Assembly: GCA_025611195.1 (NCBI GenBank)
Contig: GCA_025611195.1_4718.2
DNA length: 64,000 bases
Direction: 5' to 3' (one strand)
Source of the DNA: a phage
Below are positions 4,822 to 53,242 of the stretch, one piece after another. The notes beneath the pieces are model-generated. The model did not search any database. It saw only the letters and a program-made list of their open reading frames with translations, and was not told the DNA's origin. A program made the translations under genes and the position numbers. Every line of letters begins with the position of its first letter. Position 1 is the first letter of the stretch.

Positions 4822-5355
4822 CTACTTAACGATCGCGATGATTTTGCCGCTCGCACCGGCGTAATATGCTGTTAATTCACCAGTAAACAACTCTTGTAAA
4901 AGACGATTTACGTGACTAACAAAGTTAGGATTGTCTGATTTTACAAACTCGATATTGCGCGTTTGTTTTATATCACGATCGATTAAACGGATTTCCAACA
5001 ACGCACAAATAAGGCGATCGTCGAGTTCACCACTCGCATCCAGCACTTCCCCATACTTCGTAGCACGGACGTCCGCATACATACGGTCAACATCATCCTT
5101 CCCAAAACCACAGGAATAGGCATACGTTGCGATGGTGTTACCATTGTCCATCACATAAACGTTACCACCTGGGTAATCGATAAATCGTTGATCCTTATCA
5201 CCATGAGCGACGAACTCCAGTGTCGGTCTACCCATCGAATCACGGTTGAATTCAATTGTGGTCAAGCGATCTGGTACCACATGCAACGTAAATGGTTTCG
5301 CATTGTTACGATCGCTAGTATCGCAGTTGCCCATTACTTTTACAATAACACTCAT
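4822..5355 (-). CDS. hypothetical protein, paralog of 4187..4735
   Basis: Tandem paralogy visible in translation (see 4187..4735). Confidence 0.55.
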   Translation of the reverse strand: MSVIVKVMGNCDTSDRNNAKPFTLHVVPDRLTTIEFNRDSMGRPTLEFVAHGDKDQRFIDYPGGNVYVMDNGNTIATYAYSCGFGKDDVDRMYADVRATKYGEVLDASGELDDRLICALLEIRLIDRDIKQTRNIEFVKSDNPNFVSHVNRLLQELFTGELTAYYAGASGKIIAIVK

Positions 5356-44814: not shown

Positions 44815-46968
44815 TTATTCTGCAGTTTCTTGCTTCGGTAAATAACTTGCTGCGATGTCTTGGGCCAACAATGTATTGTTTTTATTCGAGATGAAAATAC
44901 CGTAACTTTCCATTAACGCATAATACGAACGAACGAGCGTAGAGATCAGTCGACGAATATCCATACCTTGAATAAAGATATCAGGAAGCCCGGAGGCTTC
45001 GATCACTGGTAATGGTATCGTTAAGTTGCTTATCGTTTTCTTATCGTTACGTACAATCCAATCACGGAAACGTTGTTGTAACCCTTTATCCTCCCAGGAA
45101 TCAATCCAATCATTAAGAAGCGTTTTGTTCTTCGTCGCCAACGGTACACGAACCCCAACATAAGGTGGTTCGGGGCAATGGCCGTACGATTGAGCAAACA
45201 CTTCTTCCCACATATCGTAAGACTGTTTCGTTACCGCAACATGTGGTTTCACTTTAACACGTGTTAAGAAATCCGGATCGCCACGTTTCATTGATTCAAC
45301 GATTTCGTTCTCTAGTGAGATAATATCGTCAAGAACCAATCGAATGCTGATCTTCTCATTACGTAACAGCTTATCCATTATACCACACATCATGCGTTCA
45401 ACACGTTGGACGATTATTTTTGGTGCTGACGCATCACGCATAACAGGACCTTTCAACTCCAGCTTCGGTGGGTTGATGGGAACCCCTTCACGCATGGTCA
45501 TGTATCCGTAATAGTTTTTACCCATCGAGGTTAACGACAGAATTAAGAACATATATTCGTTCTTCATTTCCATTACGTACATATGCTCTTTCGCTACACC
45601 GATATTACCAGAACACATCGCCATCAGATGAACCGTAATCTGCGTAACCAGATAGATAAGCGTGTTTGCTAAGCGCGTCGAAATCGGATTGATCTCCATA
45701 TTTCCAAATCGCCACTGAACCCACTCCTGGCAGGTAAACACCGTCGAGTCGGTATCAGACAACACACCCACTTCACGGATTGCTGACGGAAAAGCATAAA
45801 CACCAGCCGGTTGGTTCTCGGTACGCCAGAACGCCTTAATTAAATCAGCGTAGCTTTGGATGCGTTGCAACATTAATTTTGTCGTTGCTGCAGTAAGACG
45901 ATAACCAAGTTCATTTCCTTTTTCTAGCGCTACGTAAATCGCTTCCCCGTTCAAGAACTCCGTGCATTGTGCTGTAATCCAAGCGACCGTGTTGTTATCC
46001 ATGGAAGCAATAATGGCTTTAGCCTCTTCCATCGTTTCAACAGGCTCGGATGCCAGTTCACATAACGAGTCAAGAAAATCTCGAACAAATTCAGGATTAA
46101 GCTCACGTAACGAGTACAGGTTATTGCTGTACATGTAGCAGGCGCGTTCCAACGGCGTTAAACCGGTAATTAGCTCCCGGATGGTCAGTTCTTTCTCTGG
46201 GTCGAAAATATATCGATGCAAGCATTTCGATACGTTAGCCCAAACCTCTTCCGGTGTAGGGTAATGCAGTTTGTATTTTACCATTACCTGCTCAATGGCT
46301 TTACGATCGCTGTTACGGACAATGCTCACAATGTTTTCAATTGCGATATCGCAATCGTAATAATGGAAATTACCCGCAAGGAAGCGTTCGTTGTTCGCAT
46401 TGGCTGAACCTGAAGCACAGCGACATGTTGTCGTTAAACTTGGATGCGCGATCGGATTATAAAAAGGGTTAAACTTGGATGCCTGTGTTCCTGATAAACT
46501 GTTGTTGTCTAACTTGGTGTTGGTTTGTCGTTTATCGTGTAACTCAGCTTCGTCTTTACGTCCATGGGCTTGCGCTATCGACATTTGTTTCTTTTGTTTC
46601 TTACGCAACTTACCGTTTTCAACCGCAAAGTCGCTTAGCACACTGGAACGTGTTTCACGCGGATAACAGTTAGCCCATACCGGCGTGATAATTAAATTAT
46701 TTTCTTTAATATCATTGAAGTATTGGCTGAACTTGATGACTTCTTTTTCTCGGTTTCCTTCAGTACGCTGTGTTAGTACAAGGCAGTCGGGATCAACCAT
46801 CCCGTATTTTCCACCAGGACTAACCGTATCAAGAACAAACTGCAACGCTTCCCGCTGAGAAATCCCACGCATGCGCATTAAGAACAGGGTATAATCCTGT
46901 ACCGCTTCTTTGGTCATATCCAACGTACGACCATATCCGTTTTCATCGTAAAAGAACGGATTTTCCAT
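44815..46968 (-). CDS. hypothetical protein (717 aa)
   Basis: ORF track; contains an SDTDS segment but no other polymerase motifs could be confirmed by eye. Confidence 0.55.
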   Translation of the reverse strand: MENPFFYDENGYGRTLDMTKEAVQDYTLFLMRMRGISQREALQFVLDTVSPGGKYGMVDPDCLVLTQRTEGNREKEVIKFSQYFNDIKENNLIITPVWANCYPRETRSSVLSDFAVENGKLRKKQKKQMSIAQAHGRKDEAELHDKRQTNTKLDNNSLSGTQASKFNPFYNPIAHPSLTTTCRCASGSANANNERFLAGNFHYYDCDIAIENIVSIVRNSDRKAIEQVMVKYKLHYPTPEEVWANVSKCLHRYIFDPEKELTIRELITGLTPLERACYMYSNNLYSLRELNPEFVRDFLDSLCELASEPVETMEEAKAIIASMDNNTVAWITAQCTEFLNGEAIYVALEKGNELGYRLTAATTKLMLQRIQSYADLIKAFWRTENQPAGVYAFPSAIREVGVLSDTDSTVFTCQEWVQWRFGNMEINPISTRLANTLIYLVTQITVHLMAMCSGNIGVAKEHMYVMEMKNEYMFLILSLTSMGKNYYGYMTMREGVPINPPKLELKGPVMRDASAPKIIVQRVERMMCGIMDKLLRNEKISIRLVLDDIISLENEIVESMKRGDPDFLTRVKVKPHVAVTKQSYDMWEEVFAQSYGHCPEPPYVGVRVPLATKNKTLLNDWIDSWEDKGLQQRFRDWIVRNDKKTISNLTIPLPVIEASGLPDIFIQGMDIRRLISTLVRSYYALMESYGIFISNKNNTLLAQDIAASYLPKQETAE

Positions 46969-47042
46969 AAATCCTCCAAAAGTTATTTAGTCTGTCTACA
47001 TCATCTCGTATATCTGTTAAAAAAGAAGGACGGCATAAAAAG

Positions 47043-47070
47043 AACCGATCCAGCCGAAGCCAGATCGGTT
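47043..47070 (-). terminator. AACCGATC / GATCGGTT hairpin followed by U-tract on minus strand
   Basis: 8-bp stem, 12-nt loop; minus-strand downstream sequence CTTTTTATGCC...CTTCTTTTTT; lies about 195 nt beyond the stop at 47265. Confidence 0.45.
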
Positions 47071-47264
47071 TAAAGGATAATAACTGACAGAAAGATATCG
47101 ATGATGTTCGTGAAACAAGATCTTCTCTCGTGTACAATGATGCCAGATCAGAGGGAGGTTGTAACACGAGAGGTGGTTCGCCAAAGAAGGAATAAAAACA
47201 CGAACCTATCTTATTTCACTGATGGCACTAACCACTCAAAATATATAGTACTGTATGTAAAAGT

Positions 47265-47678
47265 TTACTGATTAATCAAGTCGTTAGCAACAATCTTGGT
47301 GTAACCTGCCTGATTAAGAATTTGATTAATTTTTGTCATGTCGGTTGCATCCTCGATAACGATGCTGGGTTTATAGATCAGCGTCTTGGTAACAACGATT
47401 GTACTCTCCTTAATCCAAGGAATCCCTAAAATTACATACTCGCCATCAGCTGTGATGACCTCGACGTAATTGTACTTCGTCGGATCGTTCGGTACACTCG
47501 ACGGGAGCCGGGAATAAATCTGTTGGTGAATGGCGTCCACATCACGGCCGTTACGTACAGCGGTACGATAATTGTACACCGCGCTAATTTCTACTCCGTT
47601 GAAGTTAACCCCAAGTTCTGGGGCGTACACATCAAAACTCACAACAGAGCCAATCTTTTCTAAATCAGAAGCTGGCAT
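47265..47678 (-). CDS. hypothetical protein (137 aa)
   Basis: ORF track. Confidence 0.45.
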   Translation of the reverse strand: MPASDLEKIGSVVSFDVYAPELGVNFNGVEISAVYNYRTAVRNGRDVDAIHQQIYSRLPSSVPNDPTKYNYVEVITADGEYVILGIPWIKESTIVVTKTLIYKPSIVIEDATDMTKINQILNQAGYTKIVANDLINQ

Positions 47679-47689
47679 AATAGCATCCT

Positions 47690-48211
47690 TTATTTAAAAA
47701 TGTATTCATACCCGAAAGTCGTCGCCGACCAGACCCGGATAGATGATAGTGTTCCACCACGATAAAACGTTTTTGTGAACTCCATATCCTGGACAACACG
47801 ATAATAAACACGTCCGATAATACGCACGATAAGATATCGTGATAACGATCTCTCCTCGCAGTACTCATCGATAAAGTCATCGTCGATATCTGATAAGACA
47901 ACGTCTGCGATTTCTTGCAGTAGATTCCTCATCAGCATCTGCCTTCCTTCGGTACCCCACCCAGACAAACAGTAGTCGTCTTCTGCTTGACTATAGATGT
48001 CGTTAACCGCCTGTTCGAGCAGTTGCTCAAGATAGTAGTCATCGCGCTTTATAACGTGGCGACGGCGCTCAGAGGCGTATTTTTCCATCCTGTGTTTCTC
48101 TTGTTCGGCGTATGTATTAACGACGCCACAGTCTTTTCTGGATCGTCCCACAATGCGCGACGAAAACTGGATACTACCATAACGGTAGGATAGATTTGTA
48201 CGACCTCCCAC
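47690..48211 (-). CDS. hypothetical protein (start uncertain)
   Basis: ORF track; N-terminal 40 aa overlap the upstream ORF in another frame, so the real start is probably internal. Confidence 0.4.
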   Translation of the reverse strand: MGGRTNLSYRYGSIQFSSRIVGRSRKDCGVVNTYAEQEKHRMEKYASERRRHVIKRDDYYLEQLLEQAVNDIYSQAEDDYCLSGWGTEGRQMLMRNLLQEIADVVLSDIDDDFIDEYCEERSLSRYLIVRIIGRVYYRVVQDMEFTKTFYRGGTLSSIRVWSATTFGYEYIFK

Positions 48212-48537
48212 CCGTAACGATGTGTGTTAGTCGTACGTCCGACATTGAACAGACATAACTGATTTAAGAAACAGAGCTGTATCTTTGTAAACAACACTGT
48301 GTCTTCACGTTTAACGTATCCGAGGATATAGGCATTCTCGAACGCCTCGCGTGACAAGACGGGGCGATTAAGGTACCGCAACGCTAATACCAGCAACGTT
48401 GTTATACGCAACGGATCTTCTGGGTCATTCATGGTGCTCAGCTCTGCTTGTAACCAGTCGGGGATAGTAACCGTCAGACGATAGGTATCTGTTCCACGAT
48501 CAACCACATTCAACGTTGAAAAAGGCAACATATCCAT
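48049..48537 (-). CDS. hypothetical protein
   Basis: ORF track; overlaps neighbours in different frames. Confidence 0.4.
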   Translation of the reverse strand: MDMLPFSTLNVVDRGTDTYRLTVTIPDWLQAELSTMNDPEDPLRITTLLVLALRYLNRPVLSREAFENAYILGYVKREDTVLFTKIQLCFLNQLCLFNVGRTTNTHRYGWEVVQIYPTVMVVSSFRRALWDDPEKTVASLIHTPNKRNTGWKNTPLSAVATL

Positions 48538-49075
48538 GAATTCCTTCTATCTCGAGGTTGTTCTCGCAGGTCTTGGGTAATAACCCACTGGCCGTTAACA
48601 TCTGTGTCATCGAGTAATCAAAGCACGGAAATATAAGGTTAACGGTTTCCTGGATCGCGTCAACATAACTATAAATGGCTTCATAATACTCACCATCATG
48701 ATCTACGCTAACCAGTTCCTGACACAGTTCTTCGCTTATCATTTCATATACCGGCGGATACCACGATTGAAATGGTCGCTGCATACGTAACGACCAGTAC
48801 TCGTACGTCGTATACTGAAGCACGTCATAAGCCGATACGTTAATGCGGTCGAAGAAAGCATACTTGTCCATATGCTGATACAACATCGCCAGTACGGTTT
48901 CCAAGCACACCGATATCCGCACGCCACCATCTTTCCCGTTAAGAAAATTAGGTTTCTGCCGATAACGCACAAATGCCGACGGCTTTGATTGTATTATTCC
49001 ACCACCAACCATAACGTCATACTCGTATCTAACGTAAAATTGAAATGCCACCAATCTTCTACACGTGGGATCCAC
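48500..49075 (-). CDS. hypothetical protein (start uncertain)
   Basis: ORF track. Confidence 0.4.
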   Translation of the reverse strand: MDPTCRRLVAFQFYVRYEYDVMVGGGIIQSKPSAFVRYRQKPNFLNGKDGGVRISVCLETVLAMLYQHMDKYAFFDRINVSAYDVLQYTTYEYWSLRMQRPFQSWYPPVYEMISEELCQELVSVDHDGEYYEAIYSYVDAIQETVNLIFPCFDYSMTQMLTASGLLPKTCENNLEIEGIHGYVAFFNVECG

Positions 49076-49479
49076 GTACGAAGAATCTGGTTAACTTCGC
49101 TTCGCATCACCGATAAACGACAACGAAAGTCGAACTTCTCATCATGACCGTAGTCTTCATGCATGAAAACTTCGTCCAAAACGAACTCAAGTTGCGTGTC
49201 TACATCACGACCGGAGATATTTCGTTTGTACAGATACAGTTCAATCGTGTCATAAAGCAACGTATGAATATCATAATTTCCGTTCGGCGAGAAATAAGGT
49301 AATCGCTCATCGAACATCGAAAACAGATATTCACTGTAGTTTAATAACGGGATGATGTACCGACGTCCGGTCTGTGGTGTGCGAATATGTATCGAAACCT
49401 GACTTGGACGCGGAATAGCCGACGGCTTAGAATCGTCTCTCTGAAATTGCTCTAAAGATCGCAACAAAGGTGGCCGCAT
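48994..49479 (-). CDS. hypothetical protein (start uncertain)
   Basis: ORF track. Confidence 0.4.
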   Translation of the reverse strand: MRPPLLRSLEQFQRDDSKPSAIPRPSQVSIHIRTPQTGRRYIIPLLNYSEYLFSMFDERLPYFSPNGNYDIHTLLYDTIELYLYKRNISGRDVDTQLEFVLDEVFMHEDYGHDEKFDFRCRLSVMRSEVNQILRTWIPRVEDWWHFNFTLDTSMTLWLVVE

Positions 49480-50056
49480 TGTAACTCTCCAACGCCCAAT
49501 TGTAAGGCCCTTCTAACATGTGTTCCCATACGTGAATAAACTCACTACCGAAGACAGGCTCCAGCGCCATGGTGAGATTCGTAAGTTCTGACGCGGCCGC
49601 ATGGTAAGCATCAACGTGTCTTTCCATTGACGGATCGTCTTCATTGAAAATACGTTCTGTGTCGCCAGCCCGTTCAATAAGTTCGGTAATGAGATCTGTC
49701 CATGTTTCGTGGCACGTCATCATTTCCTGTTCTCGACTTAGTATTCCGATGTCTGCGTGTACGCTGGACTCGAACCGGTCGAAAAGGACCCGAAGAACAT
49801 GCACCTTGTCGATGTATCTCACCGTTATCCAAGAAAGCGGTTGCCATCGACTCAGCGTCCATCCGGTACTCGGGAACCCCAAACTCATATAGTACGGGTT
49901 GCACGGGACCGAAGACGGAGCGACGCTGTTTAAATCGTTCCTTAATGGCAATGCCCTGTTTAATGTAAATGGGTTCATTGGCGAGTCGTTTCGCTTTTTG
50001 TTTTGCGTGAGCCAATCGAAGTTCTTCCAATTGCCCAAGCCATTCAAATTGTTCAT
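49427..50056 (-). CDS. hypothetical protein (start uncertain; 383-nt two-frame overlap with 49674..50651)
   Basis: ORF track; both frames are open across 49674-50056. Confidence 0.4.
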   Translation of the reverse strand: MNNLNGLGNWKNFDWLTQNKKRNDSPMNPFTLNRALPLRNDLNSVAPSSVPCNPYYMSLGFPSTGWTLSRWQPLSWITVRYIDKVHVLRVLFDRFESSVHADIGILSREQEMMTCHETWTDLITELIERAGDTERIFNEDDPSMERHVDAYHAAASELTNLTMALEPVFGSEFIHVWEHMLEGPYNWALESYNAATFVAIFRAISERRF

Positions 50057-50651
50057 CTGTTAGCTCCTGGGGACGTTCAACAATCGCGCCAGACGGGCAG
50101 ACATTGATCGTGATGTTAATTGATGGCATCGCCATCACTTGAGGGTTGCTATTACGTACGCGGACAACATGTTCGGTTGCTGATTTACGATCAACGCAAT
50201 ACTCTGTTTCTTGGAACTCAAATGCTTTTAACGGCGTTGGTTTTGTTTGACGTTTCTTAACACGACCAAGATCAACAATATAGGCATAATCACAAACACG
50301 TTCTATTCCGTAAATACGGTTATCCGACCAGTTCTTACCAAACAGCTTGTTGTGATGATAAGACAAATATTCGGTTACCATACCCTGAACAACATCGAAG
50401 TCTTCTCGAAAATCAGGTTGATACCAAATCGGACCGAGAATATCTGCGAACGATTCATGACGATATCGAGGATCATGTCGAGTCCAGGGCATTCTCTGAT
50501 TAAGATCGAAATCCACCAACAATTCCGTTAATTGCAGTTTTTCCTTCGGAGAAAGCTGGCGTTGATGATGCAAACTCAAGCAATCGATAAGTGGTAATGA
50601 AACCCACGATGCTAATGTGTACAAATCGATCCTGGCTAGTCTCTTGGTCAT
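49674..50651 (-). CDS. hypothetical protein (325 aa; C-terminal about 45 aa look non-coding-like)
   Basis: ORF track; Arg-rich low-complexity tail suggests read-through past a real stop or a frameshift. Confidence 0.45.
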   Translation of the reverse strand: MTKRLARIDLYTLASWVSLPLIDCLSLHHQRQLSPKEKLQLTELLVDFDLNQRMPWTRHDPRYRHESFADILGPIWYQPDFREDFDVVQGMVTEYLSYHHNKLFGKNWSDNRIYGIERVCDYAYIVDLGRVKKRQTKPTPLKAFEFQETEYCVDRKSATEHVVRVRNSNPQVMAMPSINITINVCPSGAIVERPQELTDEQFEWLGQLEELRLAHAKQKAKRLANEPIYIKQGIAIKERFKQRRSVFGPVQPVLYEFGVPEYRMDAESMATAFLDNGEIHRQGACSSGPFRPVRVQRTRRHRNTKSRTGNDDVPRNMDRSHYRTY

Positions 50652-50742
50652 ACTCTTTTCCTAAGTCCCCATTGTTTATACACACGATATCTGGGAATAG
50701 TTAAAATATACGGCGTAAAACGAAATAGGAGAGTTTCTGGCA

Positions 50743-51063
50743 TCATTTTCTCCCTCTTCGAATACCACCGATACCTCTTCGATCCAAGACGTCCCAAGCA
50801 CGCTTTATTTCCTCCTCCGTCGCTCTGGTATCTGGAGGAACAACCATAACACAATCGTGCAACGGCCAATGCGCGGGTCTGGGGTCAGCGAACAGATTAT
50901 CCCATTCAAGCGTCCATTCTTTCTTTGAACGATTATAGTAGAGCGTAAGATACGTGTTGGTATATGCTGGGTAACCACGCATAACTTCAATATTCTTACG
51001 ATCCTGGCGTTCCTGATTCCAGTCGTTAAATCGTTTTCTTATTTTATCCCACCACTCTCCCAT
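50743..51063 (-). CDS. hypothetical protein (106 aa)
   Basis: Start moved to ATG at 51063 (MGEWWDK) with AGGAGA RBS; the track ORF extends through the upstream terminator. Confidence 0.45.
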   Translation of the reverse strand: MGEWWDKIRKRFNDWNQERQDRKNIEVMRGYPAYTNTYLTLYYNRSKKEWTLEWDNLFADPRPAHWPLHDCVMVVPPDTRATEEEIKRAWDVLDRRGIGGIRRGRK

Positions 51064-51086
51064 GCTTTCTCCTACGCGGCATAAAA

Positions 51087-51106
51087 GCCTGCCCCGAAGG
51101 ACAGGC
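51087..51106 (-). terminator. rho-independent terminator (stem GCCTGTCC, UUCG loop, then UUUUAU on minus strand)
   Basis: Minus-strand GCCTGTCC-TTCG-GGGCAGGC-TTTTAT directly after the stop at 51117. Confidence 0.6.
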
Positions 51107-51116
51107 TCGATAGAAC

Positions 51117-51317
51117 TTAATAACCATCCAATTTCAATGAAGGATGGTTGACGATATGTGCGTGTTTTGCTGGGTCGTATGGCTGATATGGAAAATAGCC
51201 ATGCCACTGACGACCTTGGCATTTCGTACACAAGAACCGACCATCGCCACGCTGATTCTCGTAAGCGAGTTCAGTACTATCAACATGACCGCAACGTTCG
51301 CAGATAAACAGCGACAT
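51117..51317 (-). CDS. small zinc-ribbon protein (66 aa)
   Basis: CERCGH ... CTKCQG double CxxC. Confidence 0.45.
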   Translation of the reverse strand: MSLFICERCGHVDSTELAYENQRGDGRFLCTKCQGRQWHGYFPYQPYDPAKHAHIVNHPSLKLDGY

Positions 51318-51354
51318 AGCGCATCTCCATTCACTTGAACTTTTTGGTTCGGTG

Positions 51355-52335
51355 TTAGAAAAGCAAGAAACCGCTGTTCTTCGCTTCCGCTACAGTTTCG
51401 TCACCAACTTTCGGTGCCTGTTGACGCGCGTTACGATGTTCGATGTAACGTTTCGCTTCGTCAGCGATTTGTTTGATAATACCCCCTAAACGATCGGTAC
51501 TTAAAACAAACGACGTCGCTTCACGAATCGGGCTGCTTTCAGGCACAAAACCATCACAGCTGTAAATAGCGTTAACACCCATGACTTTAGTCGCGTCTTT
51601 CGGATAAAGCGTACAGAAAGCAATAGGACTATCGTTCTCTTTCGTCCAATCGTATCCCATGAACGTATTCAGTTCGGTGATCGTTGGTTCCAAACCGGTA
51701 ACACGCGGATGGTTTAAGAAGTTTTCCAGGTCGGCGCTGTCAAGACGACGGTTCTCGCCAGAAAACAGAACACAAAGCTGGCTAATAACAACCTGCACGT
51801 CCAGGTTGACATCCTGCTCCGATTTCCCATTTTCGCCATTCATGTGATAGCTAACAATCACCGGACGTTTCAATCCTTCTGCAGCTGCCATCAGTCCTTT
51901 AAAGGTACGATCGGCGTTGATCGTTTGACGCTCATCATCGAACGAGGCAACGATGCAACACACCACACGTTCACCGCGTTCCAGCAGGTTAGCAACCAGC
52001 GCAGGACCTGCAACAGAACCTGAACCACCGCTCAGACTAAAGACCACGATATTAAATTTACCTGGTGTATGCTTATTCAGAATACCTGGGATTTGTGAAC
52101 AGATCAGTTCAGCGTTCTCATCACGCTTCTTACCAGAACCGTCTAACTCACGACCCGCCGCATCTTTAAAGATGTAGATATGATCGTCGTCCAGTGCGCT
52201 ATCGCGTAGGTTAGCCCGGCTGGTATCAACATACGTCATGCTGTGTAATCCTTTCGCGACTTCGCCTTCAAACGCTGAGCCGATTTCGCCACCACAACCA
52301 CCAACAGCCCAAATATGTACTTGGTTCTCTTGCAT
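51355..52335 (-). CDS. phuZ: PhuZ-like phage tubulin/FtsZ-family GTPase
   Basis: N-terminal WAVGGCGGEIGSAF (tubulin T1-like GQCGNQIG) and FSLSGGSGSVAGP (T4 GGGTGSG-like) motifs; 326 aa; ATG at 52335 with AGGAG RBS. Confidence 0.75.
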   Translation of the reverse strand: MQENQVHIWAVGGCGGEIGSAFEGEVAKGLHSMTYVDTSRANLRDSALDDDHIYIFKDAAGRELDGSGKKRDENAELICSQIPGILNKHTPGKFNIVVFSLSGGSGSVAGPALVANLLERGERVVCCIVASFDDERQTINADRTFKGLMAAAEGLKRPVIVSYHMNGENGKSEQDVNLDVQVVISQLCVLFSGENRRLDSADLENFLNHPRVTGLEPTITELNTFMGYDWTKENDSPIAFCTLYPKDATKVMGVNAIYSCDGFVPESSPIREATSFVLSTDRLGGIIKQIADEAKRYIEHRNARQQAPKVGDETVAEAKNSGFLLF

Positions 52336-52399
52336 GTGAACTCCTAATTTAATATGTATTTAACGTACAATGAATCTTTCTTTGCTAAAGGGGTGACCC

Positions 52400-53242
52400 A
52401 TGGGTGCTATTGACCACAGTGTAGATCGTATCTGTCGTACAATACCGGCAGATATCCTACAGTATTGCTATATCGATCGTTACGACTGGCGTAATCGCTA
52501 TCCTCGTTCCGTAGAAGACATCATTACCGATTGGGTAATCCGTAAACGGGTTATCGGCGACATCGATATCTACGGGGGACTACAAACCGTTATTCCCCTT
52601 GATGATGCAGGTGTCACTATCGAAGAAGTCACCATTAACTGTTATGTTTTCCACATTCCGTTGGAAGCCACGCAGGGGCGTTATATCACGTCCGCATTAT
52701 CCATTATTTCAGGGAGCGTGAACAACTACGGAATAAACTATAACGGGCAATGGGGTGCTTTCAACCAAACCCAGTTTCAACGTCAGCTTTGTGGATGGAA
52801 CCCCGCAAGCAACGCGTTACAGCAAGGGATGAACGCTTTCGGTCCTATGAACGTTCTTAGTACAGCTAACGTTGATATCATCGCCCCTAACACCATCATG
52901 GTGAACAACGTCACGCCTGTACAATTTCCCCTGAGTCTACGTTGTTTCCTTGCCCACGATCCGGAACTTACTAACCTCAGCATGGAGGTTTGGAACGACT
53001 TCTACAAACTCTGTTTATATGCCACGCAAAGTGACATCTACAACAGAACCGTTATCCGTCTCGATAGAGGTGTTACAGCACAAGGACAAGAAGTCGGTGC
53101 ATTCAAGGAATACATCGATCGCTTTGCTGATGCTGAAAACACATATCAGGAATTCCTGAACGAAACGTGGGCAGGCGTTGCTGCGTGGAACGATCCGCAA
53201 ACTAAACGTCGCGCCATTCGACTACAAACCGGCTACTTCTGA
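52400..53242 (+). CDS. hypothetical protein (280 aa)
   Basis: ATG at 52400 with AAAGGGG RBS; divergent from phuZ. Confidence 0.5.
   Translation: MGAIDHSVDRICRTIPADILQYCYIDRYDWRNRYPRSVEDIITDWVIRKRVIGDIDIYGGLQTVIPLDDAGVTIEEVTINCYVFHIPLEATQGRYITSALSIISGSVNNYGINYNGQWGAFNQTQFQRQLCGWNPASNALQQGMNAFGPMNVLSTANVDIIAPNTIMVNNVTPVQFPLSLRCFLAHDPELTNLSMEVWNDFYKLCLYATQSDIYNRTVIRLDRGVTAQGQEVGAFKEYIDRFADAENTYQEFLNETWAGVAAWNDPQTKRRAIRLQTGYF

Follow-up and report, generated by a model that had tools for sequence, protein, structure and literature searches.

The overprinted pairs Rz/Rz1 of phage lambda and D/E of phage phiX174 and the programmed +1 frameshift typified by prfB of Escherichia coli are the closest described systems for two genes that lie on one strand in different, overlapping frames. 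Out-of-frame overlapping (overprinted) gene pairs are a known kind in viruses (PMC8227390). Here we present an analysis of the minus-strand open reading frames (ORFs) at positions 47690 to 50651 of a 64,000-nucleotide (nt) stretch of phage DNA (GenBank assembly GCA_025611195.1, contig GCA_025611195.1_4718.2), called the window below, with emphasis on the homologues of genes gp237 and gp238 of Escherichia phage vB_EcoM_Goslar. From sequence comparison we propose, with a probability of about 0.6, that gp237 and gp238 are two independently initiated genes which share a conserved out-of-frame overlap of 383 nt and have overprinted each other reciprocally. The two frames and the layout of ORF, Shine-Dalgarno (SD) sequence and ATG are conserved, and synonymous variation is suppressed.

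The window shares 95.6% nucleotide identity with Goslar over positions 47000-52400 and represents a Goslar-like chimallivirus; Goslar is a nucleus-forming jumbo phage of E. coli. The close comparison set consisted of Goslar and three contigs (L002-L004) at 85% nucleotide identity, none of which shows an insertion or deletion (indel) relative to the window between 47600 and 51116; variability within the Goslar clade was counted in eight sequences. An exhaustive HMMER search with gp237 delivered only four other clusters at the 50% identity level: P0005, a Goslar-clade relative (85% identical), P0006 (32% identity to gp237), which was placed on the syntenic locus L008, P0007 (29% identity), placed on the syntenic locus L009, and P0008, a fragment on a contig of 870 bp that was of no use for comparison. 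A search with a profile of gp238 added P0012 and the locus L014, which is 75% identical to L008 without any indel. Scans of IMG/VR and of metagenomes delivered close Goslar relatives only. In the following, A designates the frame of gp237 (frame 0) and B that of gp238 (+1). The principal features of the pair are:

49674..50651, minus strand: gp237 homologue, frame A, 325 amino acids (aa), start ATG at 50651, stop TGA at 49676-49674
49427..50056, minus strand: full-length gp238 ORF, frame B, 209 aa, start ATG at 50056, stop TAA at 49429-49427; proposed true extent of the gene
49674..50056, minus strand: region of 383 nt open in both frames, A in frame 0 and B in +1
49895..50056, minus strand: part 1 of the overlap; A older and conserved (TDEQFEW, predicted helices), B a poorly conserved extension (residues 1 to about 52) with predicted disorder
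49674..49894, minus strand: part 2 of the overlap; B the start of a predicted folded domain (strand 56-60, helices 62-100, WQPLSWITVRYIDKVHVLRVLFDRF), A an Arg-rich tail that is probably disordered
about 49820 to 49674, minus strand: Arg-rich C-terminal tail of gp237
50064..50068, minus strand: putative SD sequence AGGAG, 7 nt upstream of ATG 50056 and within the gp237 coding sequence
50060..50062, minus strand: B-frame stop TAA at the upstream limit of the B ORF, separated from the ATG by one codon
49718..49723, minus strand: ATG ATG, the gp238 start annotated in Goslar
49886..49888, minus strand: alternative or additional candidate start ATG for B, no SD, 153 aa, 215-nt overlap with A; conserved only in the Goslar clade

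A reading of this DNA from its letters only (the sequence-only reading) had described two frames as simultaneously open for about 127 codons over 49674..50056, which is exactly what is found, with a +1 shift from A to B. It placed a switch of protein-like character from one frame to the other near 49810-49820. This position corresponds roughly to the end of the conserved part of A, but conservation and confident folding of B set in further upstream, at about 49846-49894. Because the conserved part of A ends after that of B begins, the two coding signals overlap and do not switch. Dual coding with independent initiation was absent from the options then listed, which were over-extended alternative starts, a +1 frameshift joining the two frames, or a decaying gene.

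In Goslar, gp238 is annotated only as 49427..49723 (98 aa). The ATG ATG pair at its start reads ACA CTG in L002-L004 and ACG ATG in L012; being absent from sister lineages, these ATGs cannot be the general start of gp238. The same holds in the clade of L008 and L014, where the ATG called for B in L008 (HRMQVLDDW) reads VREQTLDDW in L014 and is missing in P0012 too, so that the downstream ATG is dispensable there as well. The gene that follows the gp237 homologue in L008 and in L009 is a gp238 homologue with the motif ELTNLTM, and in both loci the open B frame extends far beyond the called ATG in the upstream direction. This upstream part holds a conserved block, WQPLSWITVRYIDKVHVLRV / FQAISWMTMKYVKPVNIIRL / WQPLCWVTVSYVNKLMVLRF, which is among the best-conserved parts of the B protein. 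In full, the block reads WQPLSWITVRYIDKVHVLRVLFDRF in the window, FQAISWMTMKYVKPVNIIRLLLDRF in L008 and WQPLCWVTVSYVNKLMVLRF in L009. Nucleotide differences in the block are fewest at second, intermediate at first and most frequent at third codon positions of B (6, 9 and 18 between the window and L009), and residue identity amounts to 8-15 of 26 in B versus 4-6 of 26 in A. As judged from this alignment, B appears to be translated from upstream of 49846-49867 in all lineages, which makes its overlap with A at least about 173 nt long in the window.

A structure of the 209-aa B protein was predicted with AlphaFold2 (AF2) from an alignment of eight sequences. Residues 1-52 have a predicted local distance difference test (pLDDT) score below 50, and from about residue 53 onwards the score is 75-93. 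The modelled fold begins 60 residues upstream of the annotated start (residue 113), and a strand (56-60) and three helices (62-70, 76-81 and 84-100) all precede that start. Searches of the B model with Foldseek against BFVD gave weak matches (E from 2e-3, target-normalised TM-score up to 0.55, about 160 aligned columns) to uncharacterised proteins of 125-170 aa from many other jumbo phages, among them pEt-SU, PhiEaH1, RP12, PhiPA3, 201phi2-1 and Ea35-70; these hint that the predicted folded domain of B (49427-49894) may represent a small-protein fold widespread in jumbo phages. Foldseek against the PDB delivered nothing meaningful for the B model, no family was found for A or B in Pfam and PHROGs, and alignment of the B profile with gp239, gp240 and gp241 by hhalign did not detect paralogy. 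The peptides WQPLSWITVR and FESSVHADIGILSR belong to the B frame upstream of the annotated gp238 start, and QGACSSGPFRPVR is a peptide of the gp237 tail.

Long forms of B, of 209 and 215 aa, were called by gene callers only on short contigs from which the start of A is missing (P0011 and P0012). Prodigal limits same-strand overlaps to about 60 nt, and this limit is consistent with long B having been called on such contigs only. To our knowledge, long same-strand overlaps are rare in the genomes of large double-stranded DNA (dsDNA) phages and are suppressed by gene finders. In Goslar coordinates, the gp238 proposed here would rather probably span the complement of 178928..179557 in NC_048170.

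The opening of the B ORF is laid out alike in L002, L008, L014 and L009: a stop, one codon, and an ATG preceded by an SD sequence. The SD cores are AGGAG in the window, GGAGG in L008, GAGG in L014 and GGAGG in L009, each 7-8 nt upstream of the ATG, and the full opening sequences are ccccAGGAGctaacagATG in the window and L002, gccGGAGGatttaaccgATG in L008, cctGAGGatttaacagATG in L014 and gatGGAGGacttaaaacATG in L009. The layout is thus kept across four lineages, down to about 30% protein identity, and in all four of them B has a start codon and a putative ribosome-binding site of its own. SD and ATG are invariant in the eight Goslar-clade sequences, within an invariant island of 34 nt (50050-50083). 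In L009 the frame opened by the homologous ATG runs into a stop 11 codons further on, directly behind which stands a new SD-ATG. Nearly all genes of the operon have an SD, and upstream of the conserved block no other candidate start of B has one. We infer from this layout that translation of B starts at 50056. The coding strand of the window holds 15 further AGGAG-N5-9-ATG sites; ten of these head ORFs of at least 99 codons and are apparently gene starts, and the remaining five head ORFs of 48 codons or fewer.

In a null model in which synonymous codons were shuffled and the A protein was kept, the +1 frame of the window was open over at least the observed length with a probability of 0.18, so that openness as such does not go beyond chance. 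The probability that an SD-ATG heads an open +1 ORF of at least 50 codons was 0.054 for the window and 0.066 and 0.020 for the other deep lineages. These values are suggestive without being decisive, and they are conservative, as A itself may have adapted. It is the comparative data, and not the openness of a single sequence, that show the overlap to be more than chance.

Across the overlap no stop and no indel occurs in either frame in the eight Goslar-clade sequences, in L008 and L014, or in L009. Only about 5% of the A-synonymous changes would create a stop in the B frame, so that the absence of stops proves little. Among the window, Goslar and L002-L004, substitutions fall on third positions of A above 49905 and on third positions of B below 49674; between these limits they are sparse and mixed, and those silent in one frame and replacing in the other are about equal in number. 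The A-synonymous rate, taken as the fraction of A codons with an identical residue that show a silent difference, falls between L008 and L014 from 0.53 in the A-only part to 0.16 over the N-terminal part of B (p=3.6e-6) and 0.11 over the conserved part of B (p=3.5e-5), while amino-acid differences fall only from 0.36 to 0.24 and 0.22. Between the window and L002 the A-synonymous rate in the corresponding parts is 0.32, 0.19 (p=0.087) and 0.12 (p=0.006). For B, the synonymous rate between the same two sequences is 0.35 in the B-only part versus 0.10 in the overlap (p=0.002); the low silent rate of B there indicates that the tail of A is constrained too. Within the overlap, synonymous variation is thus suppressed in both genes, as expected of overprinted frames that are each under purifying selection.

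Both clades show an abrupt loss of variability at about 26-28 nt upstream of the B ATG. Among the third positions of A in the Goslar clade, 22 of 39 are variable in 50200-50084, versus 6 of 31 in 50083-49990. Recombination was considered as the main cause of this low-divergence patch and was rejected, since synonymous differences fall far more than amino-acid differences and since the drop occurs at the same place in two clades. Transcriptional slippage was likewise rejected, the region being without a homopolymer run. A scan against Rfam gave no credible match, and scans for sigma-70 promoters and terminators stayed at background apart from the terminator of the operon.

The N-terminal part of gp237 is moderately structured, and its TDEQFEW motif is conserved. 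In the AF2 model of A the mean pLDDT is 47, with 60-80 for residues 1-134 and values below 50 thereafter; residues 199-247 are modelled as helices with low confidence, and residues 275-325 have no structure. The model was too weak for a fold search. The well-conserved part of A ends at about 49810-49840, and the L009 homologue ends at a position corresponding to about 49806, where TAA TAA stands within the conserved B block. The Arg-rich tail is absent in L009; in the 32%-identical homologue P0006, RPVRRQRRSSRR matches the tail segment RPVRVQRTRRHR, and the tail recurs there as RPVRRQRRSSRRSAP. The end of the tail differs in length between lineages. The two proteins are complementary along the overlap: A is conserved where B is predicted to be disordered, and A is a basic tail where B is predicted to be folded.

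Two observations concern the 5' end of gp237. In the Goslar clade its first approximately 90 codons (50382-50651) have 6-12 variable third positions per 30 codons, versus 18-21 further on, and no overlapping ORF is evident at this low-variability 5' end. In L008 the P0006 gene call carries a 22-aa N-terminal extension (5001-5066) without counterpart in other gp237 homologues; its true start is probably the internal MRHSF.

In the proposed mechanism, ribosomes translating A would read through to the TGA at 49674, and other ribosomes would start within A, at AGGAG 50064-50068 and ATG 50056, in the +1 frame and produce the 209-aa B protein. This protein would consist of an N-terminal extension of about 52 aa, predicted to be disordered, and a folded domain of about 155 aa. 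In evolutionary terms the N-terminal extension of B would have arisen within the conserved 3' third of A, and the Arg-rich C-terminal tail of A over the first part of the folded domain of B.

Several points weigh against this proposal of two independently initiated, reciprocally overprinted genes. Within a single lineage, the null probability of ORF plus SD-ATG is no lower than 0.02-0.07, the SD-ATG is partly forced by the conserved E-L-T-D-E motif of A, and some start codon without SD lies near the domain boundary of B in every lineage. The first approximately 52 residues of B are poorly conserved between clades and predicted to be disordered. Over this N-terminal part the gene-wide synonymous test is not significant in the Goslar clade (p=0.087), where synonymous variation is heterogeneous and is also low at the 5' end of A. 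Only four lineages with the gp237-gp238 pair are present in the searched databases. No ribosome profiling (Ribo-seq) or peptide data were found for the two genes, and neither occurs in the searched supplements of the Goslar virion study.

The main rival explanation, which we consider unlikely, holds that B starts at a lineage-specific internal codon without SD at the edge of the folded domain, and that the upstream ORF with its SD-ATG is a by-product of the A sequence. The start would be ATG 49888 in the window, ATG 5878 in L008 and L014 and TTG 5797 in L009; ATG 49888 could also give a second isoform alongside the start at 50056. The modelled fold begins at about residue 53-56 and ATG 49888 is residue 57, the fold matches are proteins of about 125-170 aa, the preceding residues 1-52 are unconserved and predicted to be disordered, and the null probabilities for the upstream ORF and SD-ATG are not tiny. 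However, none of these codons has an SD, in contrast to nearly all genes of the operon, their positions are not conserved, and in L008 the ATG falls within the conserved block, after the residues that correspond to the first strand. Such a start also leaves unexplained why the A-synonymous rate drops and an invariant island begins at the upstream SD-ATG in two clades, and why the SD-ATG was re-created in L009. Far less probable is that the Goslar annotation is right, with B starting at ATG 49723 or 49720, an overlap of 47-50 nt, and upstream similarity due to constraint on A or on the RNA. The sequence AGGAA stands just upstream of ATG 49720, and the start called in L008 aligns there (MQVLDDW versus MTCHETW), but the loss of these ATGs in L002-L004 and of the L008 counterpart in L014 and P0012 speaks against it, as do the substitutions and identity in the upstream block, which favour B over A, the stop of A within this block in L009, and the AF2 model, which puts half of the B fold upstream. 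Over-extension of the ORF, one of the explanations offered by the sequence-only reading, therefore fails at this junction: annotators chose downstream ATGs that are not conserved, and selection acts on the B frame well upstream of them.

A genuine or programmed +1 frameshift joining A and B had been suggested too; placed near 49850-49780, it would give an A-B fusion of about 400 aa, possibly beside the 325-aa product, and we regard it as very improbable. The +1 relation of A to B, the end of the conserved part of A roughly where that of B begins, the sequence CCU UUU CGA with a rare Arg codon at 49787-49779, and the unusually high nucleotide conservation of the region fit such an event. The two genes are separate in distant homologues, and no fused homologue was found: a word-indexed search with fused A+B returned only close gp237-like proteins, and the exhaustive HMMER search with A alone only separate homologues of A length (280-334 aa). 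Upstream of the B block the window, L002, L008, L014 and L009 share only ACCG, so that a conserved shift motif is lacking; UUU CGA lies downstream of B sequence already under selection and is UUU AGA in Goslar. Moreover, in every lineage the B frame is already open, with an SD-ATG of its own, 52-71 codons upstream of the point where a shift would be needed, which a frameshift does not require, and the unshifted tail of A is itself conserved. A combination of two separate proteins with a low-level, lineage-varying non-canonical +1 shift yielding an A-B fusion as a third product is disfavoured to the same degree. A decaying gene, as the sequence-only reading had also considered, or one gene split by an assembly indel, can practically be dismissed. 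Such an origin would account for two open frames and for the odd-looking basic tail of A, but the same frame relation without indels is found in independent assemblies at 97, 95, 94, 86 and 75% identity as well as in lineages that share about 30% protein identity, neither indels nor premature stops occur in the 8+2+1 sequences compared, and both frames are under purifying selection.

The pair forms one end of a chain of same-strand ORFs in shifted frames. The chain itself is real, yet it was counted as seven ORFs and comprises six maximal ORFs between 47690 and 50651. The overlaps between neighbours had been given as 38-383 nt and were measured as 163, 38, 82, 53 and 383 nt, all with shifted frames. 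Maximal ORFs, conserved genes and neighbouring features are:

47690..48211, 48049..48537, 48500..49075, 48994..49479, 49427..50056 and 49674..50651, minus strand: maximal ORFs of the chain
47690..48088, minus strand: gp242 homologue, 132 aa, start ATG at 48088; overlap with gp241 40 nt, not 163
48049..48531, minus strand: gp241 homologue, 160 aa, conserved start ATG at 48531; overlap with gp240 32 nt, not 38
48500..49012, minus strand: gp240 homologue, 170 aa, conserved ATG at 49012; overlap with gp239 19 nt, not 82
48994..49479, minus strand: gp239 homologue, 161 aa, SD GGAGAG; overlap with the 3' end of gp238 53 nt
47265..47678: SH3DP protein, operon neighbour
44815..46968: divergent DNA polymerase, operon neighbour
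47043..47070, minus strand: intrinsic terminator at the end of the gp236-gp243 transcription unit

Over-extended starts, as proposed for the whole chain, account for four of the five junctions, where conserved starts reduce the overlaps to 40, 32, 19 and 53 nt, and not for the junction of 383 nt. The features of over-extended ORFs are present in 47690..48211, 48500..49075 and 48049..48537 and absent in 49427..50056. ATG 48088 of gp242 is conserved, and the upstream extension of its ORF is closed by TAA in L002-L004. ATG 48537, upstream of the gp241 start, is ACG in the same three contigs. At the gp240 ATG annotated in Goslar (48994) the window has ATA, L002 and L004 have GTG, and L003 has GTA; ATG 49012, six codons upstream of it, is kept in all five sequences and is the likely true start of gp240. 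The four smaller overlaps are over-extended ORFs together with ordinary, rather long operon overlaps.

The operon junctions within 47690-49479 overlap by 19-53 nt and not by the usual 1-4 nt, and in the same operon of distant relatives (L008 6377-8588; L009 5866-7868) overlaps of 19-41 nt are found. At the 3' end of gp238 the last approximately 40 codons (49427-49549) are near-invariant in the eight Goslar-clade sequences, including synonymous sites, with only 49514 and 49431 varying; this stretch runs about 70 nt past the 53-nt overlap with gp239. The change at 49514 creates TAG in the gp239 frame in the window only, whereas the other phages have TGG and an open upstream gp239 frame. The invariant 3' end possibly reflects an RNA element, the initiation region of gp239, or an N-terminally extended gp239 in other phages.

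The chain lies in a minus-strand operon, with the PhuZ tubulin (51355..52335) on one side and the SH3DP protein and divergent DNA polymerase on the other. This position, between PhuZ and a divergent DNA polymerase with its SH3DP partner, is the only functional hint for gp237 and gp238. In the RNA-seq tables of Goslar, reads are present for gp237-gp240. Between PhuZ and gp236 lies a minus-strand ORF of 66 aa (51117-51317) with two CxxC pairs, which gave a weak, sub-threshold Pfam match to a zinc ribbon (Elf1-like) and a weak match to PHROG 'transposase'.

If the two genes are indeed independently initiated, gp238 is mis-annotated in Goslar, with 98 aa instead of about 209 (at least 153) aa, and half of its folded domain would be missing from proteome, structure-prediction and knock-down work based on the current record. 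A mutation in, or an antisense reagent against, the last third of gp237 would also hit gp238. The locus would then show a long out-of-frame overlap that has been conserved in the evolution of a large dsDNA phage, and it would be a clean case of mutual overprinting by neighbouring genes.

Among known systems, the junctions of translationally coupled phage operons, with ATGA or overlaps of some tens of nt, resemble the other four junctions of the chain (19-53 nt). The gp237/gp238 overlap is about ten times longer, and because the start of B lies 380 nt upstream of the stop of A, coupling by termination and reinitiation cannot apply to it. The pair resembles prfB in the +1 relation of the upstream and downstream ORFs and in SD-like sequences within the coding sequence; it differs from prfB in that a conserved shift codon is lacking, neither an in-frame stop nor a hungry codon occurs at a conserved site, fused homologues were not found, and B has a putative start of its own. 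With overprinted pairs of viruses it shares the same strand, different frames and the predicted ribosome-binding site of the second gene inside the first, as well as suppressed synonymous variation and complementary order and disorder between the frames. Unlike in Rz/Rz1 and D/E, neither gene is fully embedded in the other; the 3' third of A joins the 5' 60% of B, and the overprinting is apparently reciprocal. Unlike classic overprinting, it occurs in a jumbo phage whose dsDNA genome, at about 240 kb, is under no obvious size pressure. The gp237/gp238 overlap would be a new, unannotated case of overprinting, distinguished by its length, by its reciprocity and by being conserved down to about 30% protein identity.

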